The notes: generated by a model not told the origin, from the letters alone. Positions 4,714 to 52,072 are shown, counted from the first letter of the stretch. The stretch: DNA of 64,000 bases from Flavobacteriales bacterium (GCA_038204955.1 JBBRCJ010000008.1:2187-66186), one strand, 5' to 3'. Numbers and translations are program-made.

Positions 4714-4742
4714 TCATTAAACTTTAACATAAAGAATAAATC

Positions 4743-35082: not shown

Positions 35083-35102
35083 AATTTCTATTTTTTAACT
35101 AG

Positions 35103-35140
35103 AAAAAAATGCCTTTGAAAAAACTTCAAAAGCATTTTTT
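35103..35140 (-). terminator. hairpin terminator after paralog 2
   Basis: Near-identical copy of the 34542..34579 hairpin. Confidence 0.6.
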
Positions 35141-35151
35141 ATAATTGCTTT

Positions 35152-35643: not shown

Positions 35644-35663
35644 AATTTCTATTTTTTAACTAG

Positions 35664-35700
35664 AAAAAAATGACCTTGAAAAACTTCAAAAGCATTTTTT
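35664..35700 (-). terminator. hairpin terminator after paralog 3
   Basis: Copy of the same hairpin (TGACCTTGAA...TTCAAAAGCA). Confidence 0.55.
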
Positions 35701-35711
35701 ATAATTGCTTT

Positions 35712-36215: not shown

Positions 36216-39200
36216 TTAATTTTTAATTAATGTTTTTACAGCTACAATTTGCCCGTTGCAAACCAAGGCTACCGTATATAAGCCAGCTGCATAATTGGTA
36301 GTATTAATGTTTATTTCTGACGCTTCCACATTCAATGAATATGTATTTAAAGCATTTGTGGTGCCATAACTCCCTACTACCATTAAATTGGCAGTGGTTG
36401 CTGTATTTATTTTATAGTTTACTTTGATGGTATCACTAGCAGGATTGGGTATTATGGTAGAAAGGGTGTCTGGCTTAAAGGTTACTTGTACCTCATCATA
36501 ATCTTTAAAACCGTCGGCAGTTGCAATAACTTCTAGCTTGTACTTTTTGGCAGCATCGGCTGTAACGGTAAGGTCTTTACCAGTAAAAACCAGTGTATTT
36601 TGTTCATTGTACCAATTGTAAACTGCAGCTTCATTGATTTGAACTGCTGAAAGGGTAACCGCTTCATTGCGATTAACCACAACATCGGCGCCCGCAGCAG
36701 CATCAAAAGCAACCCGCGCTTGGTTGTTAATTTCGAACGTTTCGCCCCCTATAACCTTGTTGGTCAAGGCGTCTTTTTGAATTACTCGATACAGGTACTT
36801 TGTTTTTGGAGTCAACTGGTCGGTTAAAAAGTTGAATTTTAAATTTAATATCCCTACTTCATTGGCTTCAAAAGCAATGTTGTTAACCAGTACATGATTC
36901 CCTTCTACAATTTTTTGCTTTTCGCTGGCAGTTGGTTGCAGTAACTGTCCTTGTTTTCCGCCTCTTTGCCACGCATTGAACAATGTTTCGTCCATTTTTA
37001 ATGTTATTTCTGCCGCATCATAAATGGGTTTACCAGGTTCTAAAAGGTCTTTTTCAATTTCAAGATAAAAGGCTCTTGGGGTATTAAACGGGTTGGCAAT
37101 GGCTACTGATGCATTAAAACTTGGTGCTTCGCCCGGTACCACATTGGTTTCATTATTAACAATAGTAATGTTTTTCCAAGCTACATTATTGCTGTTTTGT
37201 ACATACTCTACAATACCAATTGGGTCGGGTGAAGAGGGTAGTTCAGGCACAAGGCCTTCAATACGTGACAACAAACAAAAATGCCAAGGTTCAGGGATGT
37301 TTGAATAAACGTTAGGGTCAGGCACAGCCCAAGGAAATTTTATAATGACCGTTTCCCCTGAATTTACAACTGGAATTGGTAGGCTTCCAATGACATTGCC
37401 CAAAAGTTGGTTGCTGTTGTTGTTGAAAAAAACGCCTCCGTTCCACGGATTTGGATAATCTAAACCTGTAGACGCTTTGGCCCAATAGGTTTTTAAAACA
37501 AAGTTGGGAGTTGACGGACTACAGCCTCTGTTGTCTACTTTTACATACAAATAATTTGGAGTACCATCACTATGATAGTTCGGATTTTGATGCGTTGTTC
37601 CGTTATCATCAGTATTGCGGATCCACATGGCTTGGCTTTCCCAAAAAGCAGTGGTTATGGTATTGGGTTCCTCCCCAATATCGGCTGGCGAATCTTTAAC
37701 AAACAAATCAATATTGGCATTTTGGGTTTGTTGTGCCATTTGTACTGCCGCTAAAGCATCTACAATACCGTAACCCATCTCTACATTCCAAGTACCATTA
37801 GTACGGTTCGTTGTAGTGCTATAATTATAGGGATTGCCCTGCAGAGGTGTTATGTTTTTTCGAGCTGTAGATTCAATAATGTTTCTTACTTGCGCTCCTG
37901 TAAAACAAGGATTTAATGCTAGAATTAAGGCAGCGACACCAGCAACATGTGGCGCTGCAGCAGAAGTACCACTATCTTTTAAAAATCCATTATTAGGTGT
38001 GGTAGAATATATATCTTCCCCTGGAGCTACTATATCAAGTTGCGAACCGTAACTTGATGATGCTCTTCTGTTGTTGTTTGAGGATACTGCACCAACTGCT
38101 AATACATTTGGGTTTTCGTTAGCTGGATAAAAAACAGAACTGCCATTGTTGCCAGAGGCAAAAACTACTACACAGCCCAATCGATGTCTTCCTGAATTTA
38201 AAGCATCGGCTATAGCATTATTTAGTAAATCGCTGTAAAAAAAACCATAATTAGAAGTGTTTTGAGTACTTACTCCCCACGAGTTGTTAATAACTTCGGC
38301 ATTACCCACTTGCCAAGACCAACTAATACCATTGGCTAGTTGCTCAGACAAACTTGGAGTAATCGCCAACTTGGTACTTACACTTATCAACTTACATTGT
38401 GGCGCCACCCCAGTTATTTGTATGCCATTGTTGCGTGCAGCACCAATAATACCTCCAACGTGTGTTCCGTGTTGAAAAAATGGTGAGGTGGAATCTATAA
38501 TGCTAGGTTGTGGGTTGGTCAAAGACGACTCGGTATCATAACTTAACGGGGCAATGTTAGCAGCCAGGTCTATGTGGTCTAGTTGTAAACCAGTATCAAT
38601 AACAGCAACTTTAACGCCAGTGCCTTGTGAAATTGCAAAGGCTTCGCATGCTTTAATTTTGGGCAAGTTCCATTGTTGCCCTAACAAAGGGTCATTACTA
38701 CAAGGCACTACGGGAGGTATTGTACTAACTGGGTTTTGATTTGACGTATCACTTACAGGATCAAAAGTGTAGTCTAACATAAATGCTGGGTCAATACTTT
38801 CAAACAAATTTGTTTCAAAAAAAATATTGGTCAATTCAACAGTAGTTTCAATAGTATTGCTTTTTCTATACAAAGCAAACCAAAGCGGCATAAACTTGTT
38901 TTGATAAAGTACGGTCACATTTTTTTCAAGAGCCAACTGTTTTAATTTGGTGGTGTCACTTAAGGTGGACAATTTTATATAAAACAAATTTGATGTACCT
39001 ACTGATTTAGTATCTGATGTTTTGTAAAATTTTGCAACACCAGTAACCCCATTCGTATTTTTTAAAGCATTTACCTTTTGTAAATATTCAATATCATTGG
39101 GTTCGTTTACAAATTCAAGTCGCGCAAATTTTTCATTTGCTTTTAATTTGGTATCCAATAATTTAAACTCTTTTACATTCAAATTAGTTATTGAAGCTGC

Positions 39201-39356
39201 ATTGAAAGTATTATCAACAAACAAGTTGACATATTTTTTTTCTTCTACTAATTTTTGCTGTTTCCCTTTGTAATAGTAGTAATTACTTTGACTAAAGATT
39301 GCTGTACTGCACAAAAACAACACTACAAATTTAATTTTTTTTAATTTCTGTTTCAT
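36216..39356 (-). CDS. S8 family (subtilisin-like) serine peptidase with a T9SS C-terminal sorting domain
   Basis: 1046 aa with a signal peptide. The catalytic triad motifs are AVIDTGL (Asp), HGTHVGGIIGA (His) and SGTSAAAPHVAGVAALI (Ser). The C-terminal IIPNPASDTIKVNY...LYTVALVCNGQIVAVKTLIKN is typical of the type A T9SS sorting signal. Confidence 0.9.
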   Translation of the reverse strand: MKQKLKKIKFVVLFLCSTAIFSQSNYYYYKGKQQKLVEEKKYVNLFVDNTFNAASITNLNVKEFKLLDTKLKANEKFARLEFVNEPNDIEYLQKVNALKNTNGVTGVAKFYKTSDTKSVGTSNLFYIKLSTLSDTTKLKQLALEKNVTVLYQNKFMPLWFALYRKSNTIETTVELTNIFFETNLFESIDPAFMLDYTFDPVSDTSNQNPVSTIPPVVPCSNDPLLGQQWNLPKIKACEAFAISQGTGVKVAVIDTGLQLDHIDLAANIAPLSYDTESSLTNPQPSIIDSTSPFFQHGTHVGGIIGAARNNGIQITGVAPQCKLISVSTKLAITPSLSEQLANGISWSWQVGNAEVINNSWGVSTQNTSNYGFFYSDLLNNAIADALNSGRHRLGCVVVFASGNNGSSVFYPANENPNVLAVGAVSSNNNRRASSSYGSQLDIVAPGEDIYSTTPNNGFLKDSGTSAAAPHVAGVAALILALNPCFTGAQVRNIIESTARKNITPLQGNPYNYSTTTNRTNGTWNVEMGYGIVDALAAVQMAQQTQNANIDLFVKDSPADIGEEPNTITTAFWESQAMWIRNTDDNGTTHQNPNYHSDGTPNYLYVKVDNRGCSPSTPNFVLKTYWAKASTGLDYPNPWNGGVFFNNNSNQLLGNVIGSLPIPVVNSGETVIIKFPWAVPDPNVYSNIPEPWHFCLLSRIEGLVPELPSSPDPIGIVEYVQNSNNVAWKNITIVNNETNVVPGEAPSFNASVAIANPFNTPRAFYLEIEKDLLEPGKPIYDAAEITLKMDETLFNAWQRGGKQGQLLQPTASEKQKIVEGNHVLVNNIAFEANEVGILNLKFNFLTDQLTPKTKYLYRVIQKDALTNKVIGGETFEINNQARVAFDAAAGADVVVNRNEAVTLSAVQINEAAVYNWYNEQNTLVFTGKDLTVTADAAKKYKLEVIATADGFKDYDEVQVTFKPDTLSTIIPNPASDTIKVNYKINTATTANLMVVGSYGTTNALNTYSLNVEASEININTTNYAAGLYTVALVCNGQIVAVKTLIKN

Positions 39357-39657
39357 AGATAATAAGTTGATTTACTAAACCAACTTTTAATTAAAGTTTA
39401 AAATTATCAATTCTTCAATTTAAAATTACAAGTTCACATAAAAATGTTTGTTGGTTCTAATCAACAAAAACATTAAAAACTACCAAAAGCCTTAGATAAA
39501 ACTTATAAAAGAATTATACTAAATTAAAGGTTAGGTGAAAATTAAATTTAAAAATAGACAATTTACTTACTTAAATTAAGAGCTGATTAACAATTTTTTA
39601 TGCTAAATTAACAAAAAAATCAAATGAAAAAACATTAAAAAAATTAATTACTTAAAA

Positions 39658-40026
39658 TTAATATTGGTTGGTTGCCAAAAGTACCAAAGTACAAGCGATT
39701 TCATACTTAATTTTATTTAATTCTAACAATTGATAGAACTCTGGATTTTCGGTTCCTGGGTTAAAAATTACTCGTTTTGGTTTGGTTTCAATAATGTAAT
39801 TGTAATATTCTCGTTGGCGCGCTGGGTTTAAATAGAGCGTTACTGTATTAATTTTAGACAGTGGAATGGCTTTGGTACGAATTTTTACACCTGCCACTTC
39901 ACCTGTATTTTGCCCAATAGCTATAACCGAATGTCCTTTTTCAACAAGTGATTCGATGGCTTTGTAGGCATATTTTTCTGGTTTAGTGCTTGCTCCGAGT
40001 AGCACAGTTTTTTTATTTTTTATCAT
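39658..40026 (-). CDS. CoA-binding domain protein (YccU-like)
   Basis: 122 aa. The pattern GAS.KPEKYAYKA...GH.V..IG fits the CoA_binding_2 family. Confidence 0.75.
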   Translation of the reverse strand: MIKNKKTVLLGASTKPEKYAYKAIESLVEKGHSVIAIGQNTGEVAGVKIRTKAIPLSKINTVTLYLNPARQREYYNYIIETKPKRVIFNPGTENPEFYQLLELNKIKYEIACTLVLLATNQY

Positions 40027-40043
40027 TTTTTTAATTTTTTTTT

Positions 40044-40083
40044 CTCACTCCGACTTTCTACCAAGGAGAGAGACGGGACTTGA
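40044..40083. repeat. degenerate REP-like hairpin element, copy 3
   Basis: CTCACTCCGACTTTCTACCAAGGAGAGAGACGGGAC is a diverged relative of the 33604 and 59711 elements. It sits about 18 nt 5' of the CoA-binding gene start. Confidence 0.45.
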
Positions 40084-40181
40084 AAAGTTTACTTGTTTTT
40101 TACTTTAATTATTATCTAATTATTAATTGACACGAATTTGTTTGATGGTGTAAATTTAGTAACTATTTTTGCAAAAAAAAG

Positions 40182-40808
40182 ATGGAACTATTTATTTATT
40201 TGTTTGCTTCGTTATTTTCGGTTTTAAACCCGATTGGAGCGGTTCCGATTTTTGTTGGAATGACTTCGCATTTTGAAAAACCAGAGCGTTTGCGAGTGTC
40301 ACTTTGGACTTCGATTAACGTACTTTTAATTTTAATAATTTCTTATTTTGTGGGGCAATATGTACTTTCGTTTTTCGGAATTACTATAAATGCTTTGCGA
40401 ATTGCTGGGGGAATTATTATTTCTAATTCGGGTTTTGCTTTACTTAACACCAATTTTAATAAAACACGAGGTATTAATAAAAAGGTAGAAATAGCCTCGC
40501 AAAACAGAAGTGATATTTCGTTGACTCCCTTAGCGATTCCTCTATTGGCAGGACCTGGTTCTATTTCACTTTTAATTGCTTTTTATCAAGAGCATCACGC
40601 AAAGGTAACCGATATAATTTCCTCAGTAGCAGCAATTGTAATGGTTTCGGCGGTAATTTATTTAATTTTAAGAAGCGCGCATTACTTGGCGAAAGCATTG
40701 GGCCCATCGGGAATTATTGCTATTTCACGAATTGTGGGTTTTTTAACCATTGCTATCGGAGTTCAATACATTATTAGTTCGGTTTTAAGTATCATTCGTG
40801 GTATTTAA
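40182..40808 (+). CDS. MarC/NAAT family membrane protein
   Basis: 208-aa polytopic protein with VLNPIGAVPIF and PLAIPLLAGPG motifs. Confidence 0.85.
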   Translation: MELFIYLFASLFSVLNPIGAVPIFVGMTSHFEKPERLRVSLWTSINVLLILIISYFVGQYVLSFFGITINALRIAGGIIISNSGFALLNTNFNKTRGINKKVEIASQNRSDISLTPLAIPLLAGPGSISLLIAFYQEHHAKVTDIISSVAAIVMVSAVIYLILRSAHYLAKALGPSGIIAISRIVGFLTIAIGVQYIISSVLSIIRGI

Positions 40809-41369
40809 AATTTTAAATTCGCTTTCTACTTTATTTTTCAAACTTAAAATTTGTTGGTGTACCTTGGTTGTGGCTTGTAGTGCTGCTTCAATTTTAATTT
40901 GATGGTGCAATCCGTAACGCTCCAATCCTGCATCAGCTTCATAGGCTATTACTTGCAACCAAAGTGCTTCTATTTTATTTTTCGGGGTTGGTTCGTTATG
41001 GGTTATTTTGGTTTGATTTAGATGATTAGCCAAATGCATTAAATTTAGTTTTTGGTTGTATTTTTTTTGAAACTTGGCTAGTTTGTTTTTTAAAATTTGT
41101 TGGTTCAACTCTTGCAATTTTGCCTCCGATTCTAAAAACGAGGTTGCTTTTTCAAGTTGAAGTGCTTCGTGGTTTAAAATTGGTTTGTTTTTGGTTTTTA
41201 ATTTTTCTAAAAAGGCTACTATAGGTGCTAATTTTTCTATCGATTCTGCTGGCAGTTCTCGCTTGCCCGTTTCGTACATTGCTAGTTGGCTTAACGGAAT
41301 TACTAGATATTGTGCCAACAAGTCTTGCGATATTCCGAGTTGGTCTCTGAGTTCGGTTGTAAATTTCAT
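40785..41369 (-). CDS. XRE-type helix-turn-helix protein with a long coiled-coil C-terminal part
   Basis: ORF 40785..41405, with probable start MKFTTELRDQLGISQDLLAQYL....LAMYETGKRELP (HTH_3-like). It is divergent from the accessory array. Confidence 0.65.
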   Translation of the reverse strand: MKFTTELRDQLGISQDLLAQYLVIPLSQLAMYETGKRELPAESIEKLAPIVAFLEKLKTKNKPILNHEALQLEKATSFLESEAKLQELNQQILKNKLAKFQKKYNQKLNLMHLANHLNQTKITHNEPTPKNKIEALWLQVIAYEADAGLERYGLHHQIKIEAALQATTKVHQQILSLKNKVESEFKILNTTNDT

Positions 41370-41647
41370 TGTGATATTTTTTTGATAAATATACAATAGT
41401 ATCACGATAGGGTAATAATTATTTTTTAAAATAAAAAATTATCACGAACTTGTGAGTGAATGTCTTTTTAATTCTATTTTATCTCGAGTTTTGAAAATGA
41501 ATTATAAAGAATATTTTATTATATTTGAAAATGAAAAAAGCGAAAGAAGGCTTTGTTAATGTAACTAATAGTGGGTTGCAATACGATGGTTTGTTTCGGG
41601 TTTATATAAGTTAATGATATTTTGCCTAAAAAACGAATAAAATAATT

Positions 41648-42310
41648 ATGAATGAAATTATTAATTATTATGATAATCTTGCAAAATCATACGATGAGGA
41701 CAGATTTAACAATGCTTATGGAAAGTTTATAGACAAGCAAGAACGAATTTTATTAGATAAAATATTGACTGATAAAAATGAATTGATTTTAGATTTAGCT
41801 TGCGGAAGCGGAAGACTATTAAATTATGCAAATGTTGGTATCGATGCAAGCGCTAATATGGTAGAAATGGCAAAACTTAAATTCAAAAATAAAAAATTAT
41901 TTGTTAACGATGCAGAAAAAACTGTTTTGGAACCAAATTCAATTGATACAATTATTTGTTTTCATTTTTTTATGCATTTAGATAAAAATAAAATTAATAG
42001 AATTTTATTAGAATGCAACAGAGTTTTGAAAGAAAATGGCAGAATTATTTTTGACATCCCGTCAAAAAAAAGAAGAGAAATATTTAATTTTAAACCAAAT
42101 AATTGGCACGGAGGATTTAGCACTTCAATTGCAGAATTAAATCTAAATCCTAATTTCGATATAAAAAGATCTTTTGGAATCCTATTTTTTCCTATCCATC
42201 GATTTCCAAAATTTACTAGAAAATTTCTAATAAAAATTGATTTGCTAATGGCAAACTCATTTCTAAAAGAATACAGTTCATACATAGTAGTTGAATTTAA
42301 GAAAAAATGA
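41648..42310 (+). CDS. class I SAM-dependent methyltransferase
   Basis: 220 aa with SAM motif I (ILDLACGSGRL). Confidence 0.8.
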   Translation: MNEIINYYDNLAKSYDEDRFNNAYGKFIDKQERILLDKILTDKNELILDLACGSGRLLNYANVGIDASANMVEMAKLKFKNKKLFVNDAEKTVLEPNSIDTIICFHFFMHLDKNKINRILLECNRVLKENGRIIFDIPSKKRREIFNFKPNNWHGGFSTSIAELNLNPNFDIKRSFGILFFPIHRFPKFTRKFLIKIDLLMANSFLKEYSSYIVVEFKKK

Positions 42311-43029
42311 GAATTGTTAAAAAAATTAAAATATTCATAAAATTCAAAATTATATTTATTAATGACTTAATAAATGGCAATTTATTTAAGTTTGCAACAA
42401 ATCGACAAACTAACTTTCGTTATAATTCGACGATTGCAATTAAACAAGAAATTAAACCTAGTGAAACATTCGAAAATAAAATTTTTAATCTTTTGAAGGC
42501 TTCAAAAAAAATAAATGAATATGAAATTATGCCAGGCGAATTATTCTCATTTTGGAAAATAGTAGGTAATCCAAATTATGAATTTAAAAAAGGACGAACT
42601 TTATTAAATGGAAAAATTAAAGAAGAAATTGGCGGTGGAATTTGTCAAGTTTCCGGAATAGTATATTATGTAAGTCTGATTGCAGGTTTACAAATCATAG
42701 AAAGATACAATCATTCAGTTGACATTTATACAGATGAAACTAGATTTTCACCATTAGGTTTAGATGCTACTGTTGTTTATGGATATAAAGATTTAAGAAT
42801 AAAAAATAATTACAATTTCCCAATAAAATTTGAAATTCAAGTTCTTAAAAATCAAATAAAAATTGAATTGTTAAGTACAAATGAAATCAAAGAAAACAAG
42901 CTCTTTTTTGAAAAAGAGTTGCTAGAGGAAGAAATAATTGTAAAGATAAAGAATGAAAATAATGAATTAGTGAACATATCGAAATACAAAAAAAACCCAG
43001 CTATTCGAAGTGTTAATAAATACTTTTAA
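42307..43029 (+). CDS. VanW family protein
   Basis: 240 aa with GGGICQVSGIVYYVSL...ERYNHS, typical of the VanW domain. It has an ATGA overlap with the methyltransferase. Its last 11 codons lie inside repeat unit U1. Confidence 0.75.
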   Translation: MRIVKKIKIFIKFKIIFINDLINGNLFKFATNRQTNFRYNSTIAIKQEIKPSETFENKIFNLLKASKKINEYEIMPGELFSFWKIVGNPNYEFKKGRTLLNGKIKEEIGGGICQVSGIVYYVSLIAGLQIIERYNHSVDIYTDETRFSPLGLDATVVYGYKDLRIKNNYNFPIKFEIQVLKNQIKIELLSTNEIKENKLFFEKELLEEEIIVKIKNENNELVNISKYKKNPAIRSVNKYF

Positions 43030-43152
43030 AGCTCTGCGATTGACTAACAACCTCGTAGCATAATATTAAAATATCCAGCACCAAAAGTCTTCTTAAATAC
43101 TACTTTGCTCTGCGATGGTCTACTGACCTAGAAGCAAAATATTAAAAATATA
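42997..43152. repeat. tandem duplication of a ~78-bp unit U (U1 42997..43074, U2 43075..43152); a third copy is at 44912..44990
   Basis: The units start CCAGC(T/A).. and end ..AATATTAAAA(AT)ATA. Each contains an imperfect palindrome, best preserved in U3: AATACTTTGCTCTGCGA-13 nt-TCGCAGCACAATATT. Confidence 0.8.
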
Positions 43153-43364
43153 CTGTGCAAAGATCCAAACCGCTCATATAGGTAAGCAAACAATGTCAAC
43201 ACTAAATAGCTCCGAGCGGACACACAAGACTAGCTACTTGTAACTGATTACGGGAAATTCTTTGAATGTGTTGCATTATTAAAAACACAACTATTTGGTG
43301 TTTCTTACATGTTTATTGGTATATTTGTTTGTGGCTTGTGAAAGTTTTTTCACAGTCAGACGTT
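43075..43364. repeat. array junction J1 (type A left part plus 140-bp R module 43225..43364)
   Basis: Aligns with 44912..45204 along its length. The R module ends ...CACAGTCAGACGTT. It carries a -7-like TATATTTG at 43320..43327 (+). The minus strand encodes MQHIQRISRNQLQVASL, then diverges. Confidence 0.85.
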
Positions 43365-43374
43365 GTGTGACATT

Positions 43375-43701
43375 ATGAAAAACGAAATGCTAAAAGAAAT
43401 ATTCCATAACTATCCGAATCAAATTCAATTTGATGATATCATTGATTTTGAAAATTTTAATGAACGTTTATCTGTAGTTGATTGCATAGTTGTTAATATA
43501 ATCGGAGTCGAAGAAGGGTTTATTGAATTTATTTCAGATAATAATCCACCTTTAGACGATGAAATATTTTGTTGGATTTGGACAATCAGACCTGACTTAA
43601 CAAATGAAATTCTAGAAAAAACTGAAAATGAAGACTTAAAGTTTGCTCTGAAATCACATCTAAAGAACTCAATGGATAAATTTTGGGATTATATCAGTTA
43701 A
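43375..43701 (+). CDS. hypothetical small acidic protein (cassette 1, gene a)
   Basis: ORF 43363..43701, with an ATG at 43375 (MKNEMLKEIF...). I recognise no family. Confidence 0.6.
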   Translation: MKNEMLKEIFHNYPNQIQFDDIIDFENFNERLSVVDCIVVNIIGVEEGFIEFISDNNPPLDDEIFCWIWTIRPDLTNEILEKTENEDLKFALKSHLKNSMDKFWDYIS

Positions 43702-43704
43702 TTT

Positions 43705-44001
43705 ATGAGCGAAAATTATATTCAATACGCTGGAGGATACAATAAAGACAACATTAATTTTGCTGATATTGAAAATGCTATTCTCAAAATTCAGAAAATC
43801 GATGACGAACATGGTGCGTTTTGGGTTTCAATCATTACTGACGACGAAAATGTAATTGAAACAGACAAATATCTAAATTTATCGATTGTGTTTGATGGGA
43901 ATCAAATAAATTATAAAGCAAAAGATTGGCTAAAAGTTAAAGAATTTTACAAACTACTTTTAGACGAAAATTTTAACGAAATAAAACAAAAAATAAAATA
44001 A
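43705..44001 (+). CDS. hypothetical small protein (cassette 1, gene b)
   Basis: 98-aa ORF 3 nt after gene a. I recognise no family. Confidence 0.6.
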   Translation: MSENYIQYAGGYNKDNINFADIENAILKIQKIDDEHGAFWVSIITDDENVIETDKYLNLSIVFDGNQINYKAKDWLKVKEFYKLLLDENFNEIKQKIK

Positions 44002-44005
44002 CGAT

Positions 44006-44401
44006 CGCCCAGCGGCTGTTCCTATGTAAAGAACCATAAAGTTATTCACAACTTTGAGTAAGGGTTAAATGTTGGTTTTTTCGAGTATTATATTCCAAAA
44101 TAAGGCTTGTTGGAAAAGCTGGCTGCTGTTGTCCGCTCTGGATTTAGTGCCATCAATGGCGATGGTTTGCCCTGAAATTAAATCGGCGTCTTTTAGAAAA
44201 CTAACATACAGTTTGAAGGATTGTTTGAGTGCTTTGGGATTGTCAGCTACGGTGGTGCCTTCAAGACTAGTTACTTGTAACTGATTACGGGAAATTCTTT
44301 GAATGTGTAGCATCACTAAAAATACAACTATTAGGTGTTTTATCACGTTTATTGGTATATTTGTTTGATGGAATGTGCAAGTTTTTTCACAGTCTGATGT
44401 T
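44006..44401 (-). mobile_element. array junction J2 (type B): internally deleted IS1182-like transposase relic plus R module 44262..44401
   Basis: The minus-strand ORF from 44313 reads MLHIQRISRNQLQVTSLEGTTVADNP...LYVSFLKDADLISGQTIAIDGTKSRADNS. This joins an IS1182-type N-terminus (NR.Q..F.SLE..I..DNP) directly to the AIDGTK.RA.NS segment. TATATTTG is at 44356..44363 (+). Confidence 0.75.
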
Positions 44402-44431
44402 GGCAGTTATTTTACTTGAACGACACGAAAT

Positions 44432-44899
44432 ATGAGAAAATCAACTAAAATATTTCTAATAATTCTACTTATTTTTATAATTGGAATTTTTATACATCCT
44501 TCAAAAGTTATTTATGTCCCAAAAATTACGGGTAAAATAATTGGCGAAGATGGTAAACCAATAAGTGATGCAATTATTTCGAGAATCGAAGAGTTAGAAA
44601 CTGTAAATAAAAAATATGGATATTTTGATTACAAAAAATATAAATCCCAAACCACAAAAACTGATGAAAATGGAAACTTTCAACTTACTGAAAAGTCAAG
44701 AATTGAATGGTTGCATACTCCATTAGATTTGCCTTTTGCATATTGCTATGGAAATTTTGAAATTGAAAAAAATCACTACAAAACTTACATAACGAAATTT
44801 GGCGAATTTGAACAATTTCATAAATCAAATTGCTATGCTTGCGAAGAAATTGAATTTAAACCAATTATAACTCTGAAAAAAAACGGAATTAAAAAATAA
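44432..44899 (+). CDS. hypothetical membrane-anchored protein with a CarboxypepD_reg-like segment (cassette 2)
   Basis: 155 aa with an N-terminal TM and ITGKIIGEDGKPISDAII...TDENGNFQL. Confidence 0.6.
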   Translation: MRKSTKIFLIILLIFIIGIFIHPSKVIYVPKITGKIIGEDGKPISDAIISRIEELETVNKKYGYFDYKKYKSQTTKTDENGNFQLTEKSRIEWLHTPLDLPFAYCYGNFEIEKNHYKTYITKFGEFEQFHKSNCYACEEIEFKPIITLKKNGIKK

Positions 44900-44911
44900 A
44901 AAACAAAGGCT

Positions 44912-45204
44912 CCAGCTATTCAAAGTCTTCTTAAATAATACTTTGCTCTGCGATGGTCTACTGACCTCGCAGCACAATATTAAAAATATACTGTGCAAAG
45001 ATCCAGACCGCTCATATAGGTAAGCAAACAATGTCAACGGCTAAATAGCTACGAACGGTCATTCAAGACTAGTTACTTGTAACTGATTACGGGAAATTCC
45101 TTGAATGTGTTGCATCACTAAAAACACAACTATTGGGTGTTTCTTAGAAGTTTATTGGTATATTTGTTTGATGGAATGTGCAAGTTTTTTCAAAGTCTTA
45201 CGTT
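44912..45204. repeat. array junction J3 (type A: U3 plus A-left plus R module 45064..45204)
   Basis: Collinear with J1. The minus strand encodes MQHIQGISRNQLQVTSLE then a stop. TATATTTG is at 45159..45166 (+). It ends ...AAAGTCTTACGTT. Confidence 0.85.
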
Positions 45205-45234
45205 AGTAGCTATTTTCAGAAAAATCGGAATAAA

Positions 45235-45605
45235 ATGAATAATATCACAAAATTTTATAAAGAAATAAAAGAAAATTTTCCAAAAATAAATCAAAAAGCA
45301 TTTTGGAATGAATACGATTGGAATGAAGAAGGTTATGAAAATTCATTTATAATGACCGAAATCGCTCGTGAAATATGTCGCTGGAACATAAAAACAGAAT
45401 ATTGGGAACTCGATAATTTATTCAAAATTATTGAAATTGGGTTAACTGAATATGATGAAAAAACGTGTTCATTTTTAGCTACAGATTTCCTTGTAACTTT
45501 AATGGAAAAGAAAATAAAATTGTTAGAGATGAAATTAAAAAACTAATGAGAAAAAAAACTCAAGAAACTTATCGAGAAATGCTTAAGTTTTACAGAGAAG
45601 CGTAA
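45235..45605 (+). pseudogene. hypothetical small protein (cassette 3), apparently frameshifted near its 3' end
   Basis: The ORF runs from the ATG at 45235 to the TAA at 45546. The other frame, from about 45505 to 45605, reads NGKENKIVRDEIKKLMRKKTQETYREMLKFYREA* and looks like the natural C-terminus. The switch lies in the A-rich run GAAAAGAAAATAAAA. Confidence 0.45.
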
Positions 45606-45620
45606 AAACAGCTATTAACA

Positions 45621-46009
45621 GCCGTTCCTATTTAAAGCACCATAAAGTTATTCACAACTTTGAGTAAGGGTTATATGTTGGTTTTTTTCGAGTATTATAT
45701 TCCAAAATAAGGCTTGTTGGTAAAGTTGGCTGCTGTTGTCCGCTCCGGATTTGGTGCCATCAATGGCGATGGTTTGCCCTGAAATTAAATCGGCATCTTT
45801 TAAAAAACTAACATACAGTTTGAAGAGTTGTTTGAGCGCTTTGGTATTGTCAGCTACGGTGGTGCCTTCAAGACTAGATACTTGTAACTGATTACGGGAA
45901 ATTCTTTGAATGTGTTGCATCATTAAAAATACAACTATTAGGTGTTTCTTACAGGTTTATTGGTATATTTGTTTGATGGAATGTGCAAGTTTTTTCATAG
46001 TCTGACGTT
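45621..46009 (-). mobile_element. array junction J4 (type B): a second copy of the same deleted IS1182-like relic plus R module 45869..46009
   Basis: The minus ORF 45648..45923 reads MMQHIQRISRNQLQVSSLEGTTVADNTKALKQLFKLYVSFLKDADLISGQTIAIDGTKSGADNS. It has the same deletion junction as J2. TATATTTG is at 45964..45971 (+). Confidence 0.75.
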
Positions 46010-46048
46010 GTGTGAAATATTAAAAAAACTGAATTAAAGATATACAAA

Positions 46049-46600
46049 ATGAAGAAACTAATAATCTTTTTTTGCTTAACTGTATTTACTAGTTGCTCTA
46101 TTAAGTATTTTACAACTAACAAAGACTACTGGAGACCTATTGACAATAATGTATTCACCTATAAAAAAAATAACTTCAGGCTTAATAATTCAATAATAGA
46201 CACAACAAAAATATATTGTAAGGCAGTTCCAGAGGAAAATCCAAAATATTTTGAATGTTACAGATTTTTTTCAACAGGACAAGTACTATCATACAGTTTC
46301 CGCACAAAAATTGATACCACTGCTTTTTCTAATATAAATATCGGTGGAGTTGGATATTATCACATTAAAAAAAATATTATTCGAATTCAACAATTTACAG
46401 TTTATGCTGAACATTTCACAAAAGGTGGCGGCGGAGCGTTAATTCATAATTATGCAACTATTAAAAATGATAGTATTATAATGGATCACGAACACATTGG
46501 AAAAAATTATTACGCAAATAGAAACATACTTGAAGGTGGATATAAACTTATTTACAAAAAAACAAAAATAGAAGCACCAAAATTAAAACCAATTTGGTAA
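46049..46600 (+). CDS. hypothetical lipoprotein (cassette 4)
   Basis: 183 aa with signal peptide and lipobox FTSCS. I recognise no family. Confidence 0.6.
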   Translation: MKKLIIFFCLTVFTSCSIKYFTTNKDYWRPIDNNVFTYKKNNFRLNNSIIDTTKIYCKAVPEENPKYFECYRFFSTGQVLSYSFRTKIDTTAFSNINIGGVGYYHIKKNIIRIQQFTVYAEHFTKGGGGALIHNYATIKNDSIIMDHEHIGKNYYANRNILEGGYKLIYKKTKIEAPKLKPIW

Positions 46601-46624
46601 CAAAAACAAATACTGCACGCAATA

Positions 46625-46870
46625 GCCGTTCCTATTTAAAGCGCCACAAAGTTATTCAAAACTTTGAGTAAGGGTTATATTTGGTTTTTTTCGAGTATTA
46701 TTTCAGCAATAAGGCTTGTTGGTAAAGTTGGCTGCTGTTGTCCGCTCTGGATTTGGTGCCATCAATGGCGATGGTTTGCCCTGAAATTAAATCGGCGTCT
46801 TTTAGAAAACTAACATACAGTTTGAAGAGTTGTTTGTGCCATTGTGCAAGTTTTTTCAAAGTCTGACGTT
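46625..46870 (-). mobile_element. array junction J5 (type B with an additional internal deletion)
   Basis: It matches J2/J4 up to ...GTTTGAAGAGTTGTTTG, then jumps to TGCCATTGTGCAAGTTTTTTCAAAGTCTGACGTT. TTGTTTGA occurs at both parental positions in J4. The transposase start and the TATATTTG motif are lost. Confidence 0.75.
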
Positions 46871-46946
46871 AGGCGACAGCAGTTCAGAAAACTGCAAAAA
46901 AGAAAATTGAATTGAAAAAAAACTTATCTTTGAAAAAAATGTAGAA

Positions 46947-47195
46947 ATGGCAAAAACAATTTCAATAGAATACCCAAATTTCCTTGCAAATTCGATGAGG
47001 ATGAACAAGAGTGATTTTGAAAACGAGATAAAAGTAAGCGGTCTTGTAAAATTATTTGAACTTGGAAAAATATCGACAGGAATCGCATCAAAAGCATTGG
47101 GAATTTCCAGAATAGCGTTTTTAGAATTATTAGGAAAGTACAAAGTAGGTTTTCTGAACTTTGACGATTTAGACTCTGACTACGAAAATGCGTAA
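46947..47195 (+). CDS. UPF0175-family antitoxin-like protein (cassette 5)
   Basis: 82 aa. The ...LFELGKISTGIASKALGISRIAFLELLGKY... pattern fits UPF0175. Its own -7-like TATCTTTG is at 46925..46932. Confidence 0.7.
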   Translation: MAKTISIEYPNFLANSMRMNKSDFENEIKVSGLVKLFELGKISTGIASKALGISRIAFLELLGKYKVGFLNFDDLDSDYENA

Positions 47196-47670
47196 AGTAG
47201 TTTCAAATACAACGCCAATTATTTCTCTTTTAAAAGTTGGGAAACTAGAAATATTGAAGGAACTTTATCAAGAAATATTTATTCCTTATGAAGTTTATCT
47301 TGAAATCGAAGCGGGAAAGAACAAGGAATATTATATAGACTTAACAAAAGAAAAATGGATTCGAATTGTAAAAATACAAAGCGAAAAATCACTTTTATTT
47401 TTCTTAGATTTAGACAAAGGTGAAGCTGAAGCAATAGTTTTAGCCAACGAAACAAATGCAGATTTAATAATTTTAGATGAAACTTTGGGAAGATTCCACG
47501 CAAAACATATAGGATTAAATGTAACGGGGACAATTGGAATACTTTTGAAAGCAAAAGAAAACGGAATAATCGACAAAATAAAACCAATACTAAACGAACT
47601 TTCACAAAAAGGCATTTGGTTAAGTGAAACATTGATAAAACAAACCTTGACAAAAGCATCTGAAACTTAA
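47188..47670 (+). CDS. DUF3368 (PIN-like) toxin-type protein (cassette 5)
   Basis: 160 aa. It overlaps the antitoxin by 8 nt. The pattern SNTTPIISL..(I)G.L.LL.......I...V..E, LDKGEAEAI.LA, ILDE..GR fits the DUF3368/PIN-like family. Confidence 0.7.
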   Translation: MRKVVSNTTPIISLLKVGKLEILKELYQEIFIPYEVYLEIEAGKNKEYYIDLTKEKWIRIVKIQSEKSLLFFLDLDKGEAEAIVLANETNADLIILDETLGRFHAKHIGLNVTGTIGILLKAKENGIIDKIKPILNELSQKGIWLSETLIKQTLTKASET

Positions 47671-47688
47671 ATTAAGTATTCTGCCGCT

Positions 47689-47719
47689 CGCCCAGCAGAT
47701 GTTCCTATATAAAGCACCA
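47689..47719. repeat. 31-bp stub of the type B junction left end (array terminus)
   Basis: CGCCCAGCAGATGTTCCTATATAAAGCACCA matches the first ~31 nt of J2 (44006..). Similarity then stops. Confidence 0.7.
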
Positions 47720-47747
47720 GATGGCGCGGATATAGGTCAACGGTTGG

Positions 47748-47882
47748 ATAGCGCGGATTTACAATCCGTGCCCACAAACAAAGGCAAAAAAGGATATAGT
47801 TTTAATAAGGTTTAAGATTTTTAAAAAAAATAAAGATTATTATTGAAAGTGTTAGCGTGCACGGATTGCAAATCTGCGCTAT
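47748..47882. repeat. 24-bp inverted repeats flanking an 87-bp AT-rich spacer
   Basis: Left arm ATAGCGCGGATTTACAATCCGTGC (47748..47771). The right arm GCACGGATTGCAAATCTGCGCTAT (47859..47882) is its reverse complement at 22 of 24 positions. Confidence 0.8.
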
Positions 47883-48140
47883 CGGGGTTACAATTTATTT
47901 TTTGGATATGTATTTTTTTGAAATTGTCTAATTTATTTTAAAGTCTTTGCAGTTTAAAGTTTGAGTATCGTCGGCTAAGAATTTTTATTTATGCTATTTT
48001 ATTCAGATATAAAATAATAAATCGATCATTTGGTTTCAATTTTTAGTAGATCCGTAATTTTGTATTAGGTAGTTAAGCTGTAAACAAATACCTTAGCCAA
48101 CCTATTTTTAATTAATTAAAAACTCAGAAATTTATTTATT

Positions 48141-49337
48141 ATGGAAAACAAAAACGAAAACAATAAAATTCTTAAAAATAAATATATTCCAACTGCTGAG
48201 TTTTATAGCCAAATAATTGACAGCTTACAAGATTATTCGATTTTTACAATTGACAATGACTTTATAATTAATAGTTGGAGTTCAGGTTCAACCAAAATAT
48301 TTGGTTATGAAACCGAAGAAGTTATTGGGCAATCCTTCGACATCATATTTACTGAAGAGGATTTAAAAAACAACATTCCGAAAAAAGAAATTGAAACATC
48401 ATTAAAAGAAGGCAGAGCAACTGATAACAGATGGCATATTGCAAAAGACAAGAGCTTATTTTATGCATACGGATTGGTTTTTCCATTAACTGGTTTAGAA
48501 GGTGAAATGTTGGGCTATGTTAAAATTTTACGTGACTTAACCTATAGAAAGCAATCGGAAGATGCTATTAAAAATTATGTTAAAGAACTAGAAGAGCTTA
48601 ATACTCATAAAGAAAGCGTTTTAGCTATAGTATCACACGATTTACGAAGCCCGTTATCGGCAATAATTGGAACTACAAAATATTTAAAAGAAAATTTTCA
48701 CAAAATGAAACCTCAAGCGGTTCAAGAAATGCTTGACCTACTCTATAAATCTTCAATTGACGAGCTAGAAATGCTAGATTATCTTGTTGAATGGGCTAGA
48801 ATTAAATATGCGTCAGATGCTTTTTCACCAACAAAAATTAAATTAACCGAGTATATTGATAAAGTATTTGAAAATTTAAACGAAACCGCCGCAATAAAAA
48901 CGATCAACCTGCATCATGAAATTGCTGCCAATACAACAGTATTTGCGGACAGTAAAATGCTAATTTCAATTGTGCAAAATATTATTTCCAATGCAATAAA
49001 ACATACTAACCAAGGAGGAACTATTTCAATTTCGGCAAAAAGCAATGAGGACAAAATTATTGTGGCTGTAAAAGATACAGGAGTTGGAATGTCAAAAGAA
49101 ATAATCGAACAGCTTTTTACACCCCAAATGAAAACCCTTTCAGAAGCAAGAAAAAAAAATAAAGGTGCTGGAATTGGATTATTATTAGTTAAAGGATTTT
49201 TAGAAAAAAATGGCGGTGAAATTTGGGTTGAAAGCACTGAAGGCGAAGGTTCTTCATTTTATTTTACATTACCTATTGAGCAGCCTTTATATAAAATAGG
49301 CAGTTCAGACGAAATTATGTTTGATGAAAGTGCTTAA
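48141..49337 (+). CDS. PAS domain-containing sensor histidine kinase (cytoplasmic, orphan)
   Basis: 398 aa with an N-terminal PAS domain, the H-box SHDLRSPLSAI, an N box (NAIKHT) and G boxes (DTGVGM, GAGIGL). Confidence 0.88.
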   Translation: MENKNENNKILKNKYIPTAEFYSQIIDSLQDYSIFTIDNDFIINSWSSGSTKIFGYETEEVIGQSFDIIFTEEDLKNNIPKKEIETSLKEGRATDNRWHIAKDKSLFYAYGLVFPLTGLEGEMLGYVKILRDLTYRKQSEDAIKNYVKELEELNTHKESVLAIVSHDLRSPLSAIIGTTKYLKENFHKMKPQAVQEMLDLLYKSSIDELEMLDYLVEWARIKYASDAFSPTKIKLTEYIDKVFENLNETAAIKTINLHHEIAANTTVFADSKMLISIVQNIISNAIKHTNQGGTISISAKSNEDKIIVAVKDTGVGMSKEIIEQLFTPQMKTLSEARKKNKGAGIGLLLVKGFLEKNGGEIWVESTEGEGSSFYFTLPIEQPLYKIGSSDEIMFDESA

Positions 49338-49464
49338 AATTTTTACTATATAATTATTTTTCCCCATTTAAATCTTTAACCCTAACATTACTATTACATC
49401 AATTAATAAAGCTATCAAATACCAATTCGTTTTTATTTTATAACTTTATAAAAACAAATAAATT

Positions 49465-51882
49465 ATGAAACCGATTGCTCTTTTATCCGCATTAATTTTT
49501 GTATTAGCAAGCCAAGCCCAAACCATAACTAACCAAAAAATTACGTTACCTAACGGCTGGTCACTTTCGCCAGCAGGTCATTCGTTACCATTGGGCGATT
49601 TACCATTAAATATTGTAGTTTCTCCATCTAAAAAATACATTGCAGTTACCAATAATGGTCAGAGTATACAGAACATTCAACTAATAAATGTAAAAACCGA
49701 AAAAGAAATTGATAAAATAACCATACCTAAATCGTGGCTAGGATTACAATTTAGTAAAAATGAAAAAAATCTTTATGCGTCGGGAGGTTATGACAATTGC
49801 ATTAGAATATACGAAATTAAAAATAATACACTTATAAAGAGTGATTCTATTGCGCTTGGAAAACCTTATCCTATCGAGAATATTTGTCCTACTGGTCTAA
49901 CAATCGATTCCAAGCGTAATAAATTATATTGCGTTACTAAAGAAAATAATGCGCTATATATTTTAGACCTTAAAACAAAATTAGTACTAAAACAAATTTC
50001 CTTAAATGCGGAGGCCTATCAATGTGTGCTATCGCCAGACGGAAACCAACTTTACATTAGCCTTTGGGGAGCCAATCAAGTTGCGGTATTTGACATTCCT
50101 TCCGAAAAAATAATCACCGTAATAAATGTAGGCAGTAATCCTAACGATTTGTGTCTTACCAAAAACGGAAAAACACTTTATGTAAGCAACGGAAACGACA
50201 ACACTGTCTCCGTAATTGACACCAAAAAACTACTTGTAATTGAAACTATTCAAACCAGTCTTTATCCCGATGCACCTACAGGTAGTAACCCAAACGCTAT
50301 TGCATTATCTGATGACGAAAAAACAATATTTGTTGCTAATGCCGATAATAACTGTGTAGTAGTTTTTGATGTTTCAAAAGCTGGCAGTACCAAAACGAAA
50401 GGTTTTATTCCTGTAGGTTGGTACCCAACTGCACTAAAAGTTATTGGTGAAAAATTATATGTTGCCAATGCAAAAGGATTTAGCTCTTTACCTAATCCCG
50501 ATGGACCAAAACCAAAAAATAGTGCCGAAAAAAATGGAGTGAATCAACAAGGTAAAAATGAAAAAGAAATTCAATACATTGGAGGATTGTTTAAAGGAAC
50601 ACTATCAATAATTGATATTCCAAACGAGGCGACCTTAAATCAATATTCTAAAACAGTTTATCAAAATACTCCTTACACTAAAGAGCGAGAAATGTTAACG
50701 ATAGGCGAAGAAGGAAATCCAATTCCGCAAAAAGTAGGAGATAGTTCACCAATTAAATACGTTTTTTATGTAGTTAAAGAAAACCGAACCTATGACCAAG
50801 TATTGGGTGATATTAAAGAGGGAAATGGCGATGCATCACTTTGTTTATTTCCTGAAAAAGTTACTCCAAATCAACATGCTTTGGTTAAAAATTTCGTGCT
50901 ATTAGACAATTTTTATGTTGATGCAGAAGTTAGTGCCGATGGTCACAATTGGTCAATGGCTGCTTATGCCAACGATTATGTCGAAAAAACTTGGCCTACA
51001 AGTTATGGCAGTCGCGGTGGAAAATACGAATATGAAGGTACTAGAAAAATTGCCTTTCCTAAAGATGGTTTTATTTGGGATCATTGCAAGCGTGCTGGTA
51101 TTACCTATCGCACTTATGGCGAATTTGCCGATGATGGAAAAGCTAATATCCCTGCATTAGAGAAACATTATTGTAAAAATTATTCTGGTTATAATTTAGA
51201 TGTGACTGACAATACTAGATTAGAAGCTTTTAAAAAAGATTTAGATTCATTAATCGCAATTAATGCCGTGCCAAAATTTAATTCAATGCGATTTAGTAAT
51301 GATCATACCTATGGTGCAAGAATAGGTAAAATGACTCCAACAGCTATGATTGCAGAGAATGATTTGGCAGTTGGAAAATTTATTGAATATTTATCTAAAA
51401 GTAAAATTTGGAACGAAACGGCTATTTTTATTTTAGAAGATGATGCTCAAAACGGTTCCGATCATATTGATGCCCACCGTTCAACAGCCTATGTTGTGAG
51501 TCCGTTTACCAAAAGAAAAGCTGTGATTCACGATATGTATAGCACATCATCAATGTTACGAACTATTGAACTAATTTTAGGTTTAAAACCAATGAGCCAA
51601 TACGATGCAGCGGCGCCATCAATGTGGAATTGTTTTACTAAAACACCAGATTTTACTATTTTTGAGCATAAAGACGCACAGGTTGATATTACAGAAAAAA
51701 ATACTGTTTTTAACAATTCTGCAAAACAATCAGCTAAATTAAATTTAGCCGAAGCCGATGCTGCCCCAGATTTAGAGTTCAATCGGATAATCTGGAAAAC
51801 AGTTCGAGGAGAAAATACTGAAATGCCAGCGCCACGACACAGTGCTTTTTTAAGTCTTACTAAAAGCGAAGATAAAGATTGA
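49465..51882 (+). CDS. secreted beta-propeller (YncE/YVTN-repeat) protein fused to a phosphoesterase (PLC/acid phosphatase family) domain
   Basis: 805 aa with a signal peptide, repeated ...LY(V/A)(S/A)N...N.V.V(I/F)D motifs, then a C-terminal ENRTYDQVLGD...DDAQNGSDHIDAHR phosphoesterase pattern. Confidence 0.8.
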   Translation: MKPIALLSALIFVLASQAQTITNQKITLPNGWSLSPAGHSLPLGDLPLNIVVSPSKKYIAVTNNGQSIQNIQLINVKTEKEIDKITIPKSWLGLQFSKNEKNLYASGGYDNCIRIYEIKNNTLIKSDSIALGKPYPIENICPTGLTIDSKRNKLYCVTKENNALYILDLKTKLVLKQISLNAEAYQCVLSPDGNQLYISLWGANQVAVFDIPSEKIITVINVGSNPNDLCLTKNGKTLYVSNGNDNTVSVIDTKKLLVIETIQTSLYPDAPTGSNPNAIALSDDEKTIFVANADNNCVVVFDVSKAGSTKTKGFIPVGWYPTALKVIGEKLYVANAKGFSSLPNPDGPKPKNSAEKNGVNQQGKNEKEIQYIGGLFKGTLSIIDIPNEATLNQYSKTVYQNTPYTKEREMLTIGEEGNPIPQKVGDSSPIKYVFYVVKENRTYDQVLGDIKEGNGDASLCLFPEKVTPNQHALVKNFVLLDNFYVDAEVSADGHNWSMAAYANDYVEKTWPTSYGSRGGKYEYEGTRKIAFPKDGFIWDHCKRAGITYRTYGEFADDGKANIPALEKHYCKNYSGYNLDVTDNTRLEAFKKDLDSLIAINAVPKFNSMRFSNDHTYGARIGKMTPTAMIAENDLAVGKFIEYLSKSKIWNETAIFILEDDAQNGSDHIDAHRSTAYVVSPFTKRKAVIHDMYSTSSMLRTIELILGLKPMSQYDAAAPSMWNCFTKTPDFTIFEHKDAQVDITEKNTVFNNSAKQSAKLNLAEADAAPDLEFNRIIWKTVRGENTEMPAPRHSAFLSLTKSEDKD

Positions 51883-52072
51883 TTAAAATTATTTCATAAT
51901 TATTAAAATAATTAATTATTTGCCTGAAATTTTAAAAGTACTCCACTCGATCAAAGAATGATTGCTTAATAAATTTACATAATTATTTAAATTGATCTTA
52001 ATCAAATATTGTAAATAATTACAAGACGTTTTGTCATTTGATATTTTCTTTTTTTGTACTTTTAAATAAAAA

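Follow-up and report, generated by a model that had tools for sequence, protein, structure and literature searches.

The DNA analysed here, a stretch of 64,000 nucleotides from a Flavobacteriales bacterium (JBBRCJ010000008.1:2187-66186) that we call the window, has about 31% G+C and comes from a Flavobacterium-like genome. Between 42990 and 47760 it contains a cassette array, that is, five co-oriented units of small open reading frames (ORFs), named c1 to c5, with repeats between them. These repeats are referred to as junctions, J1 to J5 each preceding the cassette of the same number and J6 closing the array. The genes upstream of J1 are a VanW-like gene, a methyltransferase gene and a helix-turn-helix (HTH) gene, and a first 12-nt box, AAAAAACCCAGC (42990-43001), lies before J1 within the last codons of the VanW-like gene.

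All cassettes and junctions are described on the plus strand. Cassette c1 (43365-44013) holds two small ORFs (43375-43701 and 43705-44001), with a 5′ box GTTGTGTGACAT at 43362-43373 and a 3′ box CGATCGCCCAGC at 44002-44013. Cassette c2 (44402-44916) has one ORF (44432-44899) with a weak DUF6795 match; its 5′ box is GTTGGCAGTTAT, and complementarity with its 3′ region, AAAGGCTCCAGC, is poor. The interval that an initial annotation of this DNA had flagged opens with the 5′ box of c3, GTTAGTAGCTAT (45202-45213), which we call R′-type, and c3 itself (45205-45619) ends with an R″-type 3′ box, ACAGCTATTAAC (45608-45619). The ORF of c3 (45235-45546) is seemingly frameshifted near 45500-45546: reading goes on to 45603, and the other frame runs through ...ENKIVRDEIKKLMRKKTQETYREMLKFYREA and meets a stop immediately ahead of the R″ box. 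Cassette c4 (46010-46623) carries a lipoprotein-like ORF (46049-46600) between boxes GTTGTGTGAAAT and ACTGCACGCAAT (46612-46623), and c5 (46871-47696) a toxin-antitoxin-like pair, composed of a UPF0175 protein (46947-47195) and a DUF3368 protein (47188-47670), between GTTAGGCGACAG and CGCTCGCCCAGC (47685-47696).

Junction alignment distinguished a type A (J1 and J3) from a type B (J2, J4 and J5), the right-hand ~150 nt being common to both, and all five junctions terminate in ...CAnAGTCTGACGTT. J1 (43002-43364) consists of a spacer TATT, two 76-nt units and, from ~43226, the remnant of an insertion sequence (IS) with its 5′ untranslated region, a minus-strand transposase (tnp) ATG at 43276 and the left inverted repeat (IRL), up to the final ACGTT at 43364. 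J3 (44917-45204) has the same spacer, a single 76-nt unit and an IS remnant from ~45065, with the tnp ATG at 45115 (minus strand) and the terminal GTT at 45202-45204. The type-A left halves (43006-43225 and 44921-45064) are thus made of the 76-nt unit, which contains two short hairpins and is in tandem in J1 (43031-43071, 43107-43147). The type-B left part starts GTTCCTATnTAAAG. In J2 (44014-44401), the spacer GGCT and an attC-like 5′ part (GTTCCTATGTAAAG..., to 44096) are fused to an IS remnant (44097-44401) at ...TATTCC|AAAATAAGG; J4 (45620-46009) has a spacer AGCC, an attC-like 5′ part to 45703, an IS remnant at 45704-46009 and the same breakpoints as J2; and J5 (46624-46870) is a type-B junction that has undergone another internal deletion. 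Past the last cassette, at 47701-47719, the type-B left end recurs as a sixth, partial copy. This copy belongs to J6 (47697-47760), a terminal IS-free site that reads AGAT-GTTCCTATAT...ATATAGGTCAAC-G-GTTGGAT and has the look of a short attC site. In locus L036, the homologous array closes with a long form of J6.

On the minus strand, the junctions read AACGTCAGAC..., a short leader, an ATG, and then MQHIQRISRNQLQVSSLE fused to ...DNTKALKQLFKLYVSFLKDADLISGQTIAIDGTKS.... Transposase remnant ORFs are found on this strand in J2 (44065-44346, in which 18 N-terminal codons are joined to the segment of the first catalytic D, IAIDGTK; homologues P0002-P0004), in J4 (45648-45923, 91 amino acids) and in J5 (46698-46859). 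Their sole family match is NCBIfam NF033551 (IS1182; profile positions 112-153, E 1.7e-4 to 2.4e-4), and a protein search returned homologous fragments that are 74-81% identical over the NF033551-matching segment, one of them carrying PF05598. Since the minus-strand ORF matches an IS1182 transposase, the junctions are internally deleted IS1182-family elements, antisense to the cassette ORFs. The conserved ...GTCTGACGTT end is the left inverted repeat of the IS. No second, inverted IS end exists in the window within 3 mismatches, and each copy keeps its left end only; these copies are relics, not intact members of the family. Deletion breakpoints are common to J2, J4 and J5 (for instance ...TATTCC|AAAATAAGGCTTGTTGG at 44096/44097 and 45703/45704), and these three are therefore copies of one ancestral wreck rather than independent events. 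The initial annotation missed this decayed IS1182-family content, which makes up most of each junction, and treated the junction element as one unit, when it is a composite in which the 5′ part of an attC-like site is fused to an IS remnant. Both interpretations, that of attC logic and that of an inserted mobile element, hold simultaneously.

At the right end of the junctions, the 25-mer GCAAGTTTTTTCAnAGTCTGACGTT has five copies on the plus strand, ending at 43364, 44401, 45204, 46009 and 46870, with 0 expected by chance; no minus-strand copy and no further copy was found in the 64 kb. The shared sequence ending in GTT at five junctions is thereby confirmed, and the decamers that follow GTT match those quoted in the initial annotation. 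Its claim that conservation stops exactly at GTT has to be corrected, as the flank is constrained: 5/5 window cassettes fit GTT-NNNN-G-NN-A, and in relatives the flank after GTT has R at +1 in 36/37, G at +5 in 29/37, A at +8 in 37/37 and T at +9 in 26/37. A sharp boundary does exist, but it is that of the IS terminus and ACGT abutting the R′ box, rather than the limit of a recombination site proper. What appeared as conservation ending at GTT is the IS end (...CAGTCTG), followed by ACGT and the T of the core, with cassette-specific sequence after it. The octamer (C/T)AGCTATT does recur at 42998, 44913, 45207 and 45609, and had been considered as a possible target duplication. This explanation fails, because two of the AGCTATT copies are box plus spacer (CCAGC|TATT) of J1 and J3, and the two others are the R′ and R″ boxes of c3, where they surround the palindromic TAGCTA. 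No direct duplications of 7-9 bp flank the junctions.

Relatives were retrieved by scanning for the IS end with the pattern AAGTTTTTTCANAGTCNNAYGTT, which gave 108 loci in JGI/ENA metagenomes and 72 in the GTDB genome set, ~180 Bacteroidota loci together. The host is in most cases a Flavobacterium (F. cheonanense, F. chungnamense, F. aureirubrum J3, F. solisilvae), a member of the Chitinophagales or another member of the Bacteroidota. No matches were obtained when genomes were scanned with a 21-mer of the junction interior, and exact look-ups of the window proteins returned only the same organism (L001, 100% identical). Window-like arrays are present in L073, L049 (the same array as L172), L100, L103, L083, L090, L007, L117 and L167.

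We then have a set in which the complementarity of cassette ends can be compared. Boxes in the window were set without regard to complementarity, each being the 12-mer that 4 nt separate from the conserved body of the following junction. Reverse-complement matches between the two boxes of the same cassette are 6, 4, 10, 8 and 8 of 12 for c1 to c5 (the reverse complement of the c3 3′ box is GTTAATAGCTGT; the figure for c2 is approximate, box 44906-44917 being one base off 44905-44916), and across junctions they are 6, 5, 5 and 4 of 12. The own-cassette assignment has the highest total among 120 permutations, of which 3/120 tie (nominal ~0.025), and this rank is carried by c3, c4 and c5; the weak match of c1 and c2, given as a caveat in the initial annotation, is real. 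Related arrays gave a much clearer picture. Junctions in L073 and L049 start with a variable 12-mer, ACTnnnnnnYAAC, then four variable bases and the conserved body, and end with ...GACGTT followed by RGYRRYAAT. The reverse complement of the 12-mer matches GTT and the nine next bases (GTT+9) of its own cassette at 11, 10, 11, 11 and 11 of 12 positions, against only 7-8/12 for the start of the next cassette. Among 102 non-redundant ends, 23 have a GTT+9 12-mer with a reverse-complement partner (ACTnnnnnnAAC) of at least 11/12 located 30 nt to 3 kb downstream, compared with 1.2% in a control where flanks were swapped between loci; direct-repeat partners numbered 2. One mismatch is systematic: the 5′ box ends in AAT and the 3′ box begins with ACT, so that the mismatch is A·C in the top strand and G·T in the bottom one. 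The boundaries thus covary when a larger set of copies is considered, as the initial annotation had proposed to check, and pairing by cassette rather than by junction is strong in the related arrays and weak in the window. Its central inference, that the pairing across a cassette is that of R″ and R′ of attC after a G|TT crossover, holds.

IS-free sites in the relatives have a regular anatomy: R″ (...AAC), a short spacer, a left arm L″, 60-150 nt, a right arm L′, and (A/G)AC-GTT-R′. Pairing of the arms, measured between the 40 nt after R″ and the 40 nt before R′, beats shuffles in 12/16 IS-free sites (z < −2), with nine at z < −4, and long imperfect hairpins are found in L033 (z = −2.5) and L099 (z = −4.0). 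In L182, the sites are near-identical (~200 nt) while the cassettes are different. One of the cassettes of this IS-free array, P0013, is a homologue of c4 (58% identical), with boxes GTTAGGTGCAAT and ACAGCACCTAAC matching at 10/12, and with neighbours and attC-like repeats unlike those of c4. That P0013 is a cassette elsewhere, with its own boxes and neighbours, supports cassette mobility. The c4 homologues of L185 and L186 had no recognisable boxes. Another c4 homologue, P0010 (ERZ27296333, 63% identical), belongs to an ordinary operon, in a tight DUF6452-DUF6048-c4 row among housekeeping genes; the cassette gene may have originated from a native locus of this type.

In many loci the IS end motif adjoins a longer or complete transposase gene, and near-full transposase copies were detected by tblastn beside the same end in more than 20. 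Over the segment that they share, the window remnants are ~81% identical to such full copies as well as to fragments. Complete relatives are 1720-1760 bp long, with ~20-nt inverted repeats and termini AACGTCAGRCTGTG...CACAGYCTGACGTT, and show no conventional target duplication. In L017, L018, L074 and L079, the right end of the IS comes directly after the right arm (...GG(A)ACGT|CAGGCTGTG), and its left end meets the next cassette (CAGTCTG|ACGT-T-R′). When the empty sites of L015 and L041 were aligned with the occupied site of L017, the ~130 nt of alignment ended in a divergence exactly after ...GGAACGT, and in silico removal of the IS from L017 restored a hairpin with z = −6.7. The IS is therefore inserted between L′ and R′ of hairpin sites, with only a palindromic ACGT on both sides. 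ACGTT is present at the insertion point in 8/12 empty sites, which means that the target is this ACGT, overlapping the R′ box. Insertion of the L017 type into a hairpin without conventional duplication agrees with published IS1182-family behaviour, as IS1272 and TnSha1 insert in hairpins without target duplication and with possible partial deletion of the stem-loop (PMC5678879, PMC4923244). Orientation is fixed: for 21 distinct full-length copies, the flank on the IRL side, where the transposase starts, fits RNNNGNNA in 14 and the flank on the side of the right inverted repeat (IRR) in 1, the remaining IRR-side flanks resembling L′ (right) arms. In a sub-lineage (L073, L049, L098, L071 and the second L017 copy), the body begins four bases after R″ with GTAGCTGTTGCGCAACC and a terminator-like hairpin, and no right arm is left. 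This GTAGCTGTTGCGCAACC piece may be either a captured half of an attC site or a diverged IS right end, in which case the stem-loop would have been replaced. The left ends GTTCCTATTTAAAGCACC and GTAGCTGTTGCGCAACC each bear a weak resemblance to the IS end (8-10/18 by eye).

The Bacteroidetes −7 consensus is TAnnTTTG. Such a box, TATATTTG, points outward from the IS of J4 at 45964-45971 (plus strand), 46 nt before the end of GTT, and equivalent boxes exist at 43320, 44356 and 45159; that of J5 is lost. Over the ends carrying a TAnnTTTG on the cassette strand, 72/92 have it 45-46 nt before the end of GTT. Between the IS end and the ATG of the transposase (e.g. 45924-46009, minus), the transposase strand shows no promoter of the Bacteroidetes type, and the outward-pointing box is the only conserved promoter-like box at the IS left ends, in the window and in relatives. 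By its position, the box could drive the downstream cassette. Group IIC-attC introns offer a published parallel for an outward promoter driving the next cassette (PMC3001079).

With a probability that we estimate at about three in four, 42990-47760 is an integron-type cassette array without integrase in view, similar to a CALIN (cluster of attC sites lacking integrase; Cury et al. 2016, PMC4889954), whose sites were invaded by decayed IS1182-family elements. On this reading, each cassette opens right after a GTT with the R′ box (GTT-RNNNGNNAT) and closes with a box that is reverse-complementary to that start (R″, ACTnnnnnnAAC). Such R″/R′ pairs are the mark of a circular cassette, with a single hairpin site between R″ and R′, that was inserted after opening at G|TT; the cassettes were presumably moved by a site-specific recombinase that acts on folded single strands. 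In relatives, the IS inserts at ACGT just before the T of the R′ GTT, always with IRL toward the next cassette, and the hairpin-targeting habit of IS1182 would explain the preference for attC. The junctions of ~250-400 nt are no longer intact attC sites: in each, the spacer and the 5′ part of an attC-like site are fused to an internally deleted, antisense IS. Copies that share breakpoints in the window may have spread by gene conversion, or by a stem-loop-replacing transposition similar to that of miniature inverted-repeat transposable elements (MITEs), and the array would now be largely frozen. It looks largely fossil, because arm pairing is absent, R″ boxes are degraded in several copies (...CAGC, ...AAT), c3 looks frameshifted and the box of J5 is lost.

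Several observations weigh against an integron-type origin. Folding of the five window junctions, a check that the initial annotation had proposed, showed that no attC hairpin is left (z from −1.9 to +1.1, no L″/L′ arm pairing). J6 has the expected fold shape, although it folds no better than shuffles, and we rejected it as a working attC site. Cassettes c1 and c2 pair no better than chance, the boxes, 12 bp in length and with a fixed mismatch, fit RYYYAAC/GTTRRRY only loosely, and attC membership was judged on features only. The type-A left half has no relative among any of the retrieved loci, and many related arrays consist of only 1-4 cassettes scattered among housekeeping genes. Lastly, tblastn with an approximate IntI1 query detected no integrase in the window, and no integron integrase was found among the ~180 related loci. 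What this query did reveal in relatives were tyrosine recombinases in L063, L047, L089, L030 and L171. Those beside IS ends match TIGR02249 in two pieces, below cutoff, and in L089 (2583-4696) and L171 (4041-5199) an Xer-like tyrosine recombinase lies beside IS91-family transposase genes, near IS1182-type ends. Being below the integron-integrase cutoff and, for L089 and L171, associated with IS91, these five were not retained as evidence for integrons; recombinases of the L089/L171 type can readily be taken for integron integrases. Housekeeping genes adjoin the heads of the window, L049 and L073 arrays, where no recombinase gene is present. The recombinase that serves these cassettes may be encoded elsewhere in the genome and be an integron integrase (integrons have been reported in Bacteroidota, PMC8618304), or it may be an Xer-like enzyme as in rAID-1.

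The simplest alternative would be that ordinary MITEs or IS fragments inserted independently in a normal row of genes, the pairing resulting from chance and from the palindromic TAGCTA. IS-derived DNA is indeed present within the junctions, AGCTATT recurs at four boundaries, and c1 and c2 pair no better than chance. However, junction flanks are neither direct repeats nor good inverted repeats, and each junction has one IS end without any inverted copy within 3 mismatches; full-length relatives lack a conventional duplication; the AGCTATT copies are accounted for by box plus spacer and by the boxes of c3; and cassette-wise pairing reaches 11/12 in relatives, compared with 1.2% in controls. Plain insertion into a hairpin moreover predicts junction-wise pairing, which is not seen. 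We conclude that this explanation is largely refuted, and consider it very improbable. Better, though still unlikely, is the proposal that the IS1182-family transposase itself built and moves the units, with no integrase: hybrid elements, having a T2-type or type-B-kind right end, a deleted body and IRL, would replace stem-loops and carry adjacent genes, and arrays would grow by recombination between copies. This would account for identical breakpoints beside cassettes with different R″ boxes (J2/J4/J5; L073/L049), for the T2-type left end that follows R″ and 4 nt in many contigs and abuts the transposase C-terminus in L017, for IS-bearing junctions that lack the attC hairpin and yet have R″/R′ at 11/12, and for the lack of an integrase in the window or the ~180 loci. 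Precedents exist in IS1272, for stem-loop replacement, and in TnSha1, which carries adjacent genes (PMC5678879, PMC4923244). The difficulty comes from L182, L033, L099 and L167, where R″/R′ cassettes have full hairpins and no IS, so that the cassette system is independent of the IS. Insertion into a hairpin also predicts arms paired by junction, and type-B and T2 left ends are only weakly similar to the IS inverted repeat.

A more serious candidate, which we nevertheless regard as doubtful, is an integron-like Bacteroidota system that does not use IntI and is distinct from classical integrons, relying instead on an Xer-like tyrosine recombinase as proposed for rAID-1. The 12-bp boxes with their fixed mismatch are unlike the 7-bp R boxes, IntI is missing from the window and the ~180 related loci, Xer-like recombinases lie beside some IS ends, and the cassettes encode small unknown proteins and a toxin-antitoxin pair; rAID-1 repetitive intergenic sequences have themselves been called ‘reminiscent of integrons’ (bioRxiv 10.1101/471110). 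Against this, no recombinase gene heads the window, L049 or L073 arrays, those found are IS91-associated, and integrons proper are known in Bacteroidota (PMC8618304). One may go further and imagine a distinct Bacteroidota system, defined by 12-bp covarying boxes, the A·C/G·T mismatch, hairpin sites of 110-200 nt and no IntI nearby, with the IS1182 lineage as a dedicated partner that replaces the hairpin, donates an outward promoter and leaves hybrid junctions that the DDE transposase continues to copy between cassettes. We hold this to be improbable; if true, reshuffling would be carried out by a transposase and not by an integrase.

The integron-type, CALIN-like reading is the one that we prefer, and the comparison with known systems is as follows. 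Integrons and CALINs share with the present loci the co-oriented small ORFs including a toxin-antitoxin pair, the boundaries ...AAC and GTT..., a 3′ box complementary to the 5′ end of its own cassette and, in IS-free relatives, imperfect hairpins between the boxes; the lack of an integrase nearby is as in CALINs, and sites that are homogeneous within an array while cassettes differ are as in chromosomal integrons. Differences are the covariation of 12-bp boxes with a fixed mismatch, sites of 110-200 nt, the lack of IntI in any locus and, in the window, hairpins destroyed by IS remnants. Mobile elements that specifically invade attC sites are known, namely IS1111-attC insertion sequences and group IIC-attC introns (PMC11187229, PMC3001079). 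Like them, the IS described here inserts in a cassette recombination site with a specific orientation, and like the introns it has an outward promoter-like element that could drive the next cassette; unlike them, it has a DDE transposase (IS1182) rather than a DEDD transposase or a retro-element, its target is ACGT at the R′ boundary, and its hosts are Bacteroidota. IS1272 and TnSha1 of staphylococci belong to the same IS family, target hairpins, make no conventional duplication, can replace part of the stem-loop, and have variants with alternative or duplicated ends. IS1272, however, has no sequence or orientation preference and hits terminators generally, whereas the present lineage uses one position and one orientation in attC-like sites. 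Finally, rAID-1 of Bacteroidales (Ross et al. 2019, bioRxiv 10.1101/471110) resembles the window by its phylum, its low-GC, small, co-oriented genes and its repetitive intergenic sequences. It is defined, however, by a 5′ co-directional XerD-like recombinase gene, when the window has no recombinase, and no cassette protein of the window was recognised as an immunity protein.

Full-text literature searches returned no report of an IS1182-family lineage specialised on attC. We regard the array as a known kind of system, integron-type cassettes of the CALIN kind, with an IS1182 lineage that targets attC and is apparently undescribed. The latter would be a third, unrelated kind of attC-specialised mobile element, beside IS1111-attC and group IIC-attC introns, and the link between this specialisation and the hairpin habit of IS1182 may help to explain target recognition in the family. 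For annotation of Bacteroidota loci, the rule would be to read what lies between GTT-RNNNGNNAT and ACTnnnnnnAAC as a cassette; where IS wreckage fills the sites, such cassettes would probably escape gene callers and integron finders. The outward box suggests a route of expression for cassettes far from any array promoter, and the identical wrecked junctions on unrelated cassettes bear on the question of how the sites of an array become uniform.

Some observations on neighbouring sequences are added. In L117 (Flavobacterium aureirubrum J3), other junction repeats, starting with CGAGTAGACGGCTCCGCCAG after an R″-like box, are located at 2703-3002, 4570-4869 and 5675-5897. They include the ~40 final codons of a tyrosine recombinase, are also found in L054 and L075, and seem to be either another invader, different from the first, or what remains of the recombinase of the array. 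Just past the window array, a 34-nt inverted repeat (47747-47780 / 47850-47883, 85% complementary, 69 nt apart) is based on the small hairpin GCGGATTTAnAATCCG, and this motif also adjoins array ends in L036 and L184. The idea that 47747-47883 could contain tRNA fragments marking an integration site was discarded, as ARAGORN finds no tRNA there and an Rfam search of 38000-52000 gave no match. Farther upstream, on the minus strand at 34591-36203, three tandem ORFs of exactly 163 amino acids each adjoin an ORF of 1046 amino acids, putatively subtilisin (S8)-like by eye; the three look like a paralogous lipoprotein triplet.

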